Positions 28,787-52,585 of a DNA stretch of 64,000 bases are shown here, piece after piece. A program made the position numbers and the translations under genes. How positions within the stretch are numbered: position 1 is the stretch's first letter; each line of letters begins with the position of its first letter. Source of the DNA: Octopus vulgaris (taxonomy: Eukaryota); NCBI GenBank assembly GCA_951406725.2, contig OX597815.1, positions 150,598,001 through 150,662,000 of the forward strand. The letters are read 5' to 3'. Below the pieces are notes generated by a model. It did no database searches. It was not told the origin of the DNA and was given only the letters and a program-made list of their open reading frames with translations.

Positions 28787-29449
28787 ATATTAGTTTCTGT
28801 GTAATCATCATTTCACAATACACAGTATAGAAGATTCAAATATATAGTATACCACAATACAATGAACAGACGTATATGATAGATGTAATCTTAATTTTAA
28901 AATCATAGTCAATATATTAATATATCATAATATCATAACAGTTATACTAGAGCTACTGCATTATAATTCATCATACACATAAGTACATGCATATATATAT
29001 ATAGCTTAGGGTGTGGTAATCATTATATTGGCCAAACAGGAATATCACTCCGTCGAAGAACCACTCCGCAAAAACAAATCTGCCAACCACAATACAGACA
29101 GATACAGAACAGTGAACACATAGAAAGATGTGCTAGGAACCTTAATCCTAATTTCCTAATTTCCCCCTTCTATCAATGTTCACAGAACCCCTCAGTATGA
29201 TAAAAAATGAATAAAGAGGCAACTTTCATCAATAAATAACTTCCACAACTCAATATGAACACATAACTTAATACAGAACACTACTAACCTTTCAATTAAT
29301 ACCATCTATACATTCTATATACCATTCACATTACAGATCTATATCTACCCTAATTGCACCAAATCCAGAACTACTTACCTCACTTACACATAATCTTTTT
29401 ACTCAGGGACTAGTATACCCAACACGGTTCAGTAATCGGTGTGTATTCA

Positions 29450-29485
29450 AAGCAGTGATCAGTAATTTACGAAACCGGTATGATT
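29450..29485 (+). ncRNA. Minimal hammerhead-like motif with G3-C8 core
   Basis: AAGCA-GUGAUCA-GUAAUUUAC-GAAACCGGU-A-UGAUU. Confidence 0.65.
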
Positions 29486-29819
29486 TTAAATCTCTTTAAC
29501 AATTCACAATAATGACTTTTATTACCTTTATTCCTACCTCAGTTCATCTAATTGTATATATCTATCGTTACTTTTCATAAAAAGCCTTTACTTTTTTATC
29601 TCCAATGTGCATTTTCGCTTAATTTTCTTCTTACTTTCCCCTTACATTTCCACGTATAGTTTCTATTTTCTGTTTGTAATATATTTCTGTTATATATGTA
29701 TATATATATATTACTCAATGAAATTCCAACTTCGATTTTCACGCTTTATTTAAAATCTTATAATAATATAATATAATATAATATAACGAAATGATACAAT
29801 ATTAAATCTCCACTCTAAG

Positions 29820-29864
29820 TGAACTAGTACTTTCATGCATTAAACTATGCAATCGTCAGGTTCA
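29820..29864 (-). ncRNA. Minimal type I hammerhead (canonical C3-G8)
   Basis: UGAAC-CUGACGA-U-UGCAU-AGUUUA-AUGCA-U-GAAAGUACU-A-GUUCA; perfect 5-bp stem I. Confidence 0.8.
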
Positions 29865-29884
29865 TGCAGTTATGGCGACAGTTA

Positions 29885-29956
<72 letters not shown>

Positions 29957-30194
29957 TATATATATATATATATATATATAGTAGAAATATGTTACAAAAA
30001 GAAAATATAAAATACACGCGGAAATGTAAGGGTAAAATATGAAAAATCAACGAAAATGCACATTGCAAATAAAAAAAAGGCTTTTTATGACAGGTAACGA
30101 CAAATATATACATTTAGATTGATTGAGGTAGTAATAAAAGTCATAAAAGTCATTATTGTGAGATGATTATAAGATGATAATAAAGTAAGAAAAC

Positions 30195-30236
30195 AAAGCG
30201 AACCATGGTTTCCGCAAAAAATCTATTCATCGCTTT
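30195..30236 (-). ncRNA. Minimal hammerhead-like motif with A3-U8 core (stem II degenerate)
   Basis: AAAGCG-AUGAAUA-GAUUUUUUGCG-GAAACCAUGGU-U-CGCUUU; perfect 6-bp stem I. Confidence 0.55.
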
Positions 30237-30258
30237 GAAAACACCGGCTAATACACTA

Positions 30259-30340
<82 letters not shown>

Positions 30341-33328: not shown

Positions 33329-33330
<2 letters not shown>

Positions 33331-33662
33331 CAATTGCAGCGTGGAAGGTGTTTATAAGCCATTTAAGAAACACACAAAAGCCGTTCGATTCACTTCAACA
33401 TTTAAGTTTAATTTGTCAAAATATTTTCGTCGCTAAAATCCGCAACCTGTTCACTGACAAAGTCCGTGCTGCATCACGAGATGCAGCACGGACTTTGTCA
33501 GTGAACAGGTCGCGGATTTTAGCGACGAATTTGTCAGTGAACAGGTCGCGGATTTTAGCGACGAAAATATTTTGACAAATTAAACTTAAATGTTGAAGTG
33601 AATCGAACGGCTTTTATGTGTTTCTTAAATGGCTTATAAACACCTTCCACGCTGCAATTGTT
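33329..33662. repeat. Near-perfect palindrome (arms of about 147 bp, 4-nt spacer) with a 36-bp tandem duplication in the right arm
   Basis: AACAATTGCAGC...GCTGCATC-ACGA-GATGCAGC...GCTGCAATTGTT. Confidence 0.97.
33530..33579 (+). ncRNA. Minimal hammerhead-like motif with G3-C8 core (mirror copy 33412-33461 on minus)
   Basis: UUUGUCA-GUGAACA-G-GUCGC-GGAUUUUA-GCGAC-GAAAAUAUU-U-UGACAAA; 7-bp stem I, 5-bp stem II, palindromic stem III. Confidence 0.75.
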
Positions 33663-33721
33663 TTCGTTTCAGCACACGATCTCAGATCAAATTACTTGCT
33701 ATGCGAGTACATCTCCGTAAT

Positions 33722-49862: not shown

Positions 49863-50420
49863 TGTTATTGCTGTTATTGATGTGAGAATTGGTCAAGGGT
49901 ATGACATCACCTTAATTATTTAAATATACATTTTTCAGTTTCACTTTGTCACCGTGTACGGTTTATGCCGACTGCTTTTCAAATAGAGTTGTGTTAGTAA
50001 ATATTTTTATACTTAGAATCAGTGCATTTATTATTTCAGGTTATTTCTGATGAATATTGTACGTGGGATTTGTTGCAATAGTTGTTTACGTTGTTAGTTT
50101 TGACATTGATACCGCTGATGCTGTTAGTTACACTTACTCCGAGTCGTGTTTCACTATTTGGAGAAATACAAACATTTTTCATTTTTCTAGGTTTTTGTGA
50201 TTTATATTATATATTCTGCCGTAGCGTAAGACAACAGCGATCGGGCATCTACGTTTGAACCTGCTAGAATATATTAAAAATTAATAGATATGTTGATTTT
50301 TTTGATCTTCACTGTTCTACATGCTCCTTTTCTCGTATTGTCACCTATTTGGTACACCGCAGCACACATCAACAAATAATTACTCGTGCTTTCGGGAAAA
50401 TAATCGGTCCCGCAGATAAT

Positions 50421-50471
50421 CTTCCACTGAGGAGACACACAACGAGATCGAAACATCATGGTGTCTCGAAG
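50421..50471 (+). ncRNA. Type I hammerhead motif (C3-G8, GUC cleavage triplet)
   Basis: CUUCCA-CUGAGGA-GA...UC-GAAACAUCAUGGUGU-C-UCGAAG; stem II weak. Confidence 0.65.
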
Positions 50472-51154
50472 TCCCCATCCATCAAGGAACCTATGAATTG
50501 AATGCTATAAGTACACATCATCGAAATGCAGAGACTGTTTTCTGATGATGAAAAACAACAGCGATCAGACATTTACGTTCGAATCTTCCAGAACGTAATA
50601 GCAATGAATATTACATCGCTTTCTTTATTATATTCATGTTTAGTTGTTCGTTGTTATTTCATTTCTGCGTGGTGTTGGTGTGTTGTTTGTCCTTAGAGTT
50701 CACCCATTTCGCTATATCTAATGTATAATTCATGTTTTATTTTCATGTTGCCTTCTGTGATCTGAATTTTAGATGTGTCTACAATTATTTTCCTGGATAT
50801 CCGCATTACATTGTCGATATTAATAATTCTGGTATTATTGAATTCTGCAGACTGTCGTTTTGTTTCCTTGTGAAACCAGTTCAAAATAGGTTTTTTTTTT
50901 TTCGTTATTTCTTTTCATTTTATTTTTTAGTTATTTTTGCTTATGTTGACATGTGTTCTTTATGATGGAAAGGGAGTTTCGTGTTGGTGATATTATATCG
51001 TATCTTATATTTTCTGTTTTGTTTATAGACCGATTTGTTTCATACCTATTGTGTCCATTGATGTCTCCCTCAATAATGATGATAAGGAGTTTGGGCGTTC
51101 ATGTGGGAATTAGCAAGGGCGATGGTTCTATGTATACATTGATGTGAGTTGCGT

Positions 51155-51539: not shown

Positions 51540-52585
51540 CAGAAGACGAAGATAGGTGTATAAACAACAAGCAGGTGTATTTGACGCTCGGAAAGGTGGG
51601 TACGTCTCTTACGTTTCGAGCAAACGCTCTTCAACAGAAAGAAACACGAAGAAATAAACAGACGCAATAGAAAAAGTTTTGGAGTTAGCCGTCAATCATG
51701 GCGACTAGTTGGACAAAGGTAGTTAGACAGGGGAACTAGGAAGAAGGGAAGATAATAAAGTACTGGTGATCCCAAAACGAAGATGTGCGTGCGTGTGTGT
51801 ATATGAGAGTGTGTAGGTGTGTGCGTGTTGTTAGGAGTTGGTTACTTTGACGTGTGGATGAGTGCGTGTATGTCTGCGTCTGTACTGTGTGCGTGTGTGG
51901 ATGATGGTGTGGGTGTTGGGAAGTGGTCAGTGCTAGTATGTGCTGAGTATTGTGGGGTAGTGTGAGGTGGTGAGGTGGTGTGTAGTGTGGTGTTCGGGTG
52001 TGGAGATGTGAGGGTGGGCTGTGGGTTTGGGGTGAGTATGTAGGGGTGAAGATGTGGGAGTAGAGTGAGGCTGTAGGGTAGAAGTTGGGTAAGTGAAAGT
52101 GGGATGTGTGGGGGTGGGGGTAGACAGAGGGTATCAATGAAGGGATAAGGTATGTAGGAGTGAGGAGAGGAATTAGGTATTAGAGGAAGAGAGTTGGTGG
52201 GAGTCAGATAAAGAAGGGAGGGTAATTAAGCCCATGCGGAGCAAAGGAACTAAGAGAGAAGATAAATTCTTGTTCACGGTGAAGGAGCGTGTCCGGATGA
52301 CTCCTGTGCAAAGACAATCCGAACACAGGCAGTTGTTGTAATGAAGGACCGGTAGTGCGGAAATGGTACGAGACCTGAGTGTCATTGCCGAGTCTAATGT
52401 CTCGAAGGTGCTGCGCGAACTGGTCAGCCAAACAGCGTCCCTTTTGACCGATGTACAGAGAAGGGCAGAAAGAGCAGGAAATGCAGTAAATGGCGTTGCT
52501 AGAAGTGCAAGTAAAGGAGTCAGTGATGTAATAGTGTCGATGATGGGTGCCTGTGAGGATGGTGGTGTTGGAGAGATAGCGGCAG
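51540..52585 (-). mobile_element. Penelope-like (Neptune-type) element 3' end: GIY-YIG, CA-rich 3' region and pLTR with a hammerhead-like motif (51605-51642)
   Basis: FTCTSSNAIYCISCSFCPSLYIGQKGRCLADQFAQHLRDIR...REQEFIFSLSSFAPHGLN; UCUUU-CUGUUGA-A-GAGC-GUUU-GCUC-GAAACGU-A-AGAGA. Confidence 0.88.

Follow-up and report, generated by a model that had tools for sequence, protein, structure and literature searches.

The window, by which the whole 64,000-nt stretch of Octopus vulgaris DNA is meant, lies in a genome of 2.8 Gb and contained two copies of one AT-rich repeat family, each with a hammerhead motif (Table 1). The copies were homologous and inverted, as the original prediction had held, with 84.3% identity over 185 nt and a mean column identity of 81%. 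The start of copy 1 had been placed at 29430; the true start was 29004, which takes in the C-terminus of a GIY-YIG domain. The best genome matches were 90–94% identical to copy 1 and 92–96% identical to copy 2, against 84% between the two, and by these identities the copies belong to different lineages.

Table 1. Features of the hammerhead-bearing repeats in the window
Feature	Position	Strand	Basis or remark
Copy 1, 5'-truncated Penelope-like element, lineage S1-GC, (TA)n-bounded	29004-29690	+	matches long copy L097 at 89.9%, starting at 29004
Broken GIY-YIG C-terminal frame, in-frame stops	29004-29266	+	translation; tblastn 65% to L107 ORF residues 410-510, E 4.7e-34
Small hairpin upstream of motif 1	29421-29443	+	ACACCG / CGGTGT in family, one arm mutated here; present in S0-S4 copies
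Hammerhead motif 1	29446-29490	+	sequence, family comparison
Motif 1 stem I	29446-29454 with 29481-29490	+	lesion at 29483
Motif 1 core	G3 29455, C8 29460, G12 29471, A17 29480	+	predicted cut 3' of A17
Motif 1 stems	stem II 29462-29470; palindromic stem III 29474-29479	+	
Third, unrelated repeat, family F4	29713-29886	-	canonical C3-G8 hammerhead motif, core at 29859
(TA)n microsatellite, insertion target	29887-29979	.	(TA)n flanks most family copies
Copy 2, Penelope-like element of lineage S2, 5'-truncated to its 3' repeat	29980-30256	-	95% to L098/L039
Hammerhead motif 2	30194-30239	-	sequence, family comparison
Motif 2 stem I	30239-30231 with 30200-30194	-	
Motif 2 core	A3 30230, U8 30225, G12 30212, U17 30201	-	
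Motif 2 stems	stem II 30223-30214 plus one extra base; palindromic stem III 30209-30202	-	

The core of the type I order was complete in both copies (U4 G5 A6, A9, G12 A13 A14, A15.1-U16.1 and H17). The literal C3 and G8 were absent, and the cores were G3-C8 and A3-U8. This double difference was present as first read, with GTGATCA at 29455–29461 (+) in copy 1 and ATGAATA at 30230–30224 (-) in copy 2. Copy 1 was ordered as stem I, GTGATCA, a 3-bp stem II, GAA, ACCGGT and A17, and copy 2 as stem I, ATGAATA, a stem II of 1–2 bp with one extra base, GAA, ACCATGGT and U17. Stem III was altered between the copies yet palindromic in each (ACCGGT at 29474–29479; ACCATGGT at 30209–30202). The core had been described as standing right after the shared TTCAAAGC; the core letters were correct, and a single base separates the two, A in copy 1 and G in copy 2. 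This base pairs with the base after position 17 (A-U in copy 1, G-C in copy 2) and is itself a compensatory stem I pair in the predicted fold. The description of stem II of copy 2 as degraded held in part, as stem II was only 1–3 bp across the whole family; the extra C-to-A in stem II of copy 2 was common to 12 of 71 copies of lineage S2. At 29483, the stem I lesion of copy 1 was an A in place of the C of the family.

Scanned with a relaxed hammerhead pattern, the window had seven matches, whereas 40 dinucleotide shuffles had 0.35 on average and two at most. Rfam gave no match in the window at the gathering score, and its hammerhead families gave none at E up to 10 in 29350–30300. The copies lay tail to tail, with (TA)n and the third hammerhead repeat between them. 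This family F4 had 43 matches among 40 scored of 292 candidates, and its core was C3-G8 in 12 of 12 loci, including that of the window. A single inverted-repeat unit or a cis dimer of copies 1 and 2 was rejected on the different lineages, the tail-to-tail order and the unrelated repeat. Moreover, with the copies on opposite strands, pairing between them within a single sense transcript is impossible. The preferred reading is that of two independent 5'-truncated insertions into one (TA)n microsatellite.

The 3' end of the family was fixed and followed by (TA)n, and the 5' ends were variable. Longer copies extended into a frame with a reverse transcriptase (RT; YLDD), a CX4CxxC linker and a GIY-YIG domain. 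The locus L107:726-2255(-) was a single 510-aa ORF, in which Pfam GIY-YIG scored above the cut-off (E 1.4e-5) and RVT_1 below it (E 7.8e-5), with the YLDD motif present. The CX4CxxC linker and a CxxC inside GIY-YIG were found in L097, L098 and L107. In L104, the 3' repeat end and a short tail stood ahead of the ATG, with an inverted truncated copy before them, and inverted partner copies were found in L007, L033, L038 and L042. The RT-then-GIY-YIG ORF, the pseudo-LTR partial tandem, the tail and the inverted 5'-truncated copies are features of Penelope-like elements (PLEs) of the EN+ type, and the family is, on this anatomy, a Penelope-like retroelement with a hammerhead motif in its 3' repeat. 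A non-LTR retrozyme, with tandem non-coding repeats and a hammerhead in each, was rejected; the copies are dispersed 5'-truncated pieces of a coding element. Six family copies stood about 20 kb apart in a tandem segmental array (G000:C1:132439539-132539204), of which the unit at L109 holds a cysteine-rich ORF that may resemble interleukin-17. The CX2-5CxxC linker before GIY-YIG, the CCHH in EN and the (TA)n preference found here, together with the partial tandem with tail and inverted 5'-truncated copies, resemble in anatomy the Neptune/Nematis-type EN+ PLEs of Craig et al. (2021, PMC8557442).

Positions 3 and 8 were tabulated in the genome with exact patterns in which these two positions were left free, and the copy numbers are lower bounds. 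The totals include L064, L346 and L353, which look like chance matches rather than family members. The A3-U8 state was not private to copy 2; it was the majority state of four lineages, S1, S3, S2 and S4. The S1 pattern had 248 matches, with A-U in 212 (by subtraction), G-C in 19, G-U in 4 and A-C in 3, and the other ten were A-G (4), A-A (3), U-U (2) and U-C (1). No G-C was found in S2 (A-U in 65/71), in S3 (A-U in 28/31) or among the first 100 of 205 matches listed for S4 (A-U in 99). The first 100 of 108 matches listed for S0 had G-C in 86, A-U in none and other states in 14. Intermediates were not as common as the paired states; G3-U8 and A3-C8 made up 7/248 in the lineage that has both pairs. 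The G3-C8 copies of S1 were tied to one upstream haplotype. Two of the seven G-U or A-C copies shared a marker with the G-C copies and five were on A-U haplotypes; these seven look like later single mutations. No lineage with mismatched 3-8 was found among the tabulated family copies, and a canonical C3 or U3 state, sought by pattern in the same family, occurred as scattered singles only.

Two readings of these tables were discarded. The G3-C8 state as a small derived offshoot (19/248) was an artefact of a pattern that fixed N7 as U; a downstream-anchored sample (70 fetched of 205 pattern matches) exposed more G3-C8 lineages, which reversed the likely direction. Additional A3-C8 rows in one alignment were misaligned copies of a lineage in which a 22-nt duplication places a second stem I 5' strand and first core box in front of an intact motif. 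This lineage comprised L079, L089, L116, L121, L131, L139, L140 and L148, and the segment was triplicated in L121 and L131. The S3 pattern was found on 26 forward and 5 reverse strands, possibly a search artefact; the other patterns were balanced.

The history of the pair was traced with a tree built on the ORF region of 45 natural copies (a 46th candidate was too short and was dropped), for which a sister PLE of 50–55% protein identity served as outgroup on a long branch (0.57). The tree was a ladder of S0 (G-C), S1-GC and then a single A-U clade (S1-AU, S3, S2 and S4) with a support of 92/94, and one change was found in 90% of bootstrap trees. The double change at 3-8 fell on one very short branch. 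S1-GC differed from the nearest A-U group by 9 fixed substitutions in 1,380 columns, two of which were positions 3 and 8. The short 3' region gave a tree that lacked resolution and was contaminated with flanking sequence. The ORF tree indicates that the 3-8 pair likely switched once, in one event inherited by many copies, and that the switch likely ran from G3-C8 to A3-U8. The reverse, with A3-U8 ancestral and G3-C8 derived, or G-C and A-U lineages as concurrent sisters, is unlikely. The root fell among the G-C copies when placed by the outside PLE, on a ladder with shrinking end branches; a rooting on S2/S3 nests G-C inside A-U, and a tree that holds the G-C copies together as a clade was not rejected (p-AU 0.168). 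Non-CpG divergence from the group majority was 4.5–5.0% in every G-C group, against 3.0% in S2; it was 4.2% in S3 and 2.5% in S4, the last from an ORF-picked, biased sample. Within S1, G-C and A-U copies were equal in age (4.6% vs 5.0%, p 0.56), so the direction is likely rather than shown.

Pairing across the fold was scored in 18 hand-picked, mutually related representatives. Of all cells, 94.4% paired (stem I, 91.7%). The 3-8 pair was A-U in 12, G-C in 6 and unpaired in none. The stem I pair adjoining the core was A-U in 11 and G-C in 7, and the third stem I pair was G-C in 10, A-U in 3, U-A in 1 and unpaired in 4, with the mismatch in S0 lineages; in this set, the two stem I pairs covary as well. 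Residues U4, G5, A6, A9, G10.1 and U16.1 were invariant in all 18. The covariation score of these related rows was above 500 of 500 shuffles; the number of doubly changed pairs was not above chance, as 227 of 500 shuffles reached it, and one of the four such pairs was a register shift. Stem III was 6, 8, 9 (imperfect) or 10 nt long, with self-duplex energies of -8.3, -11.2, -8.9 and -13.0 kcal/mol, respectively; it was self-complementary at 6, 8 and 10 nt, and the palindrome grew from 6 to 10 nt among lineages. The minimum-energy folds of monomers were not hammerheads. In dimer folds, stem III was intermolecular in three of four sequences, and the best dimer fold of copy 2 was a different structure. 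The within-family covariation that had been put forward as a sign of selection on ribozyme structure is borne out by the paired lineages, the one short-branch double change and the rarity of intermediates. Paired core letters that change together suggest that the predicted hammerhead fold was kept under selection, which shows only when source lineages are compared. Among 33 A-U copies picked irrespective of the ribozyme, core sites were changed in 12/287 and the distal 3' region in 204/4,360. The core thus decays at the background rate, so the genomic copies, both window copies included, are not under selection.

Signs of cleavage were sought in copy ends and in RNA. Copies started at the predicted cut site in 2 of the 70 downstream-anchored copies, with no pile-up. 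No pile-up of starts or ends was seen at this site in RNA reads at low depth; the raw reads were mapped at 85% likeness, have many source loci and are silent on cleavage. They covered both strands and showed both core states. Seventy reads at window position 29467 (X21-X23) joined the family 3' part to a different 5' sequence with an A3-U8 core box, and are probably from one expressed locus or from another lineage in the organism of the reads.

Changes in the G12-A13-A14 strand were carried by amplified lineages of the S0, S2 and S4 groups. GAUA replaced GAAA in 8/26 S0 copies, and G-U-AAA was found in 11/47 S2 copies and 11/23 S4 copies. An amplified G3-C8 sub-lineage (L328, L330, L331, L333, L335, L342, L350 and L352) had A14 changed to U, A at position 7 and U17. 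The youngest lineages (S4 L229-L255; L041-L053) had G-N-AAA after a 2-bp stem II, with N mostly U or A, and their stems I and III still covaried.

Other hammerhead families of the genome had U3-A8, G3-C8 and C3-G8 cores, and every family core tabulated in the genome was Watson-Crick at 3-8. The sister family F3 (L372-L390) was a young PLE family with copies 97–98% identical and a 3' region of more than 1 kb. It shared the 6-nt stem III, carried A13C and had a stem I that was weak, and U3-A8 occurred in all of the first 100 of 876 exact matches listed. Family F2, present as a head-to-head pair at 33329–33720 of the window, had a G3-C8 type I motif with a 5-bp stem II and AATATT as stem III, and was partly duplicated internally; G-C occurred in 98 of the first 100 listed of 2,325 exact matches. 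No ORF belonging to F2 was found, and a link to the outgroup ORF was rejected (1/20 loci).

We consider it probable that the hammerhead in the pseudo-LTR cuts tandem transcripts as a dimer, slowly, and that source elements kept the 3-8 pair through the change from G-C to A-U. In a transcript of tandem elements, two motifs would pair through the palindromic stem III, and the 3-8 pair would form within the paired motif. The RNA would be cut after position 17, only as a dimer and probably slowly, perhaps aided by the element protein. Sources with an unpaired 3-8 would propagate poorly, and so, it is proposed, no lineage arose except by the double change. The window copies are relics. That dimers form, that the RNA is cleaved and that a mismatch costs fitness are steps that we infer with the aid of PMC4209133 and PMC11167929, set upon the observed anatomy, lineage tables, single tree change and neutral decay. 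Against this explanation stand the neutral decay of genomic copies, the altered G12-A13-A14 strands of amplified lineages, the short stem II, the lack of a pile-up at the predicted cut site, the dispensability of the Anolis hammerhead for insertion in vitro (PMC11167929) and the fact that it concerns a single event. A single event is also what two neutral transitions fixed by chance in one source element would leave, since transposable element subfamilies fix linked changes in blocks. Such a coincidence is highly improbable given a P of 3.8e-5 for the named pair, or about 1e-3 over 25 pairs with the number of branches uncorrected, two more double changes in stem I, palindrome-preserving insertions, and the Watson-Crick state of every tabulated family core.

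A hammerhead-shaped fold may instead have been kept for RNA pairing or protein binding, as a dimerisation or RT-loading element, with catalysis lost or incidental. The amplification of A14U, G-N-AAA and A13C lineages, the youngest included, with helices and palindrome kept covarying, the lack of a cut-site signal in copy ends and RNA reads, and the insertion in vitro of hammerhead mutants without a defect (PMC11167929) are in its favour. This reading is nevertheless improbable. The 3-8 pair is described in the tertiary-stabilised structure and as absent from minimal-ribozyme crystals (PMC3884650), and its retention therefore argues for the catalytic fold. The six invariant residues listed above were unchanged in 18/18 representatives, and PMC3088659 regards U13a, an insertion found naturally within the GAAA strand, as one that is likely tolerated. 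A tentative extension of the dimer-cleavage explanation, which we hold to be rather doubtful, is that hammerheads of this Penelope clade work with the aid of protein and with a looser core. Each of the four Watson-Crick 3-8 pairs would be naturally used in one genome, and motifs with changes at A13/A14, one more base next to G12 and a stem II of 1–2 bp would still cleave as dimers. If true, the genome would offer an evolutionary series of functional core variants that are invisible to standard C3-G8 searches.

Type I minimal hammerheads with a palindromic helix III were reported in the pLTRs of metazoan PLEs by Cervera and De la Pena (2014, PMC4209133), along with natural U3-A8 (Schistosoma) and the model that the palindromic helix leads to dimers. 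The present family resembles those systems in its place in the 3' repeat of an RT and GIY-YIG element, its mostly 5'-truncated single copies with inverted copies nearby, G10.1-C11.1, the palindromic helix III and natural 3-8 covariation. Unlike here, the representative motifs listed in the text of Figure S3 of that paper begin with CUGA or UUGA, none with GUGA or AUGA; stem II is mostly longer there than the 1–3 bp of this family, in which A9 is not followed by an additional base and the switch can be mapped inside one family. A G3-C8 core in a PLE hammerhead was engineered in Anolis Poseidon (PAc), where the C3G/G8C double mutant gave a partial rescue of cleavage (PMC11167929); in contrast to that laboratory mutant, G3-C8 is natural and likely ancestral here, and A3-U8 also occurs. 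The Anolis hammerhead is described there as needing protein to cleave and as dispensable for insertion in vitro. The variants that Perreault et al. (2011, PMC3088659) describe for natural cores share the 3-8 covariation, the short stem II (two base pairs) and the insertion in the GAAA strand, with U3-A8 as the sole 3-8 variant named in the text available of that paper. Small PLE-associated variants with a diminished stem III that cleave as dimers (Lunse, Weinberg and Breaker, RNA Biol 14:1499, as summarised in PMC6765202) are, by title and review summary, alike in their PLE link and dimer cleavage. No natural G3-C8 or A3-U8 was found in the literature searched; Lunse et al. and Przybilski and Hammann (2007) may cover them.

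PLE hammerheads, their action as dimers, the 3-8 pair and natural U3-A8 are thus already published, and the addition here is a 3-8 switch mapped within one family, which confirms and extends the established pair and does not overturn it. The role of Penelope hammerheads in retrotransposition is debated, as they may simply parasitise the elements (PMC8557442) or be dispensable, as in the in vitro work on Anolis. A compensatory switch of an active-fold pair on a very short source branch is population-level evidence of fold selection in propagating elements. The lineage ladder provides ready natural sequences for cleavage comparison, and C3-G8 descriptors and Rfam miss whole families.

Elsewhere in the window, a further GIY-YIG-like PLE fragment at 52234–52533 (-) was 31% identical to the L107 ORF, and at 50417–50480 (+) a canonical CUGAGGA motif resembled a hammerhead and had a near-palindrome of 12 nt as its stem III.
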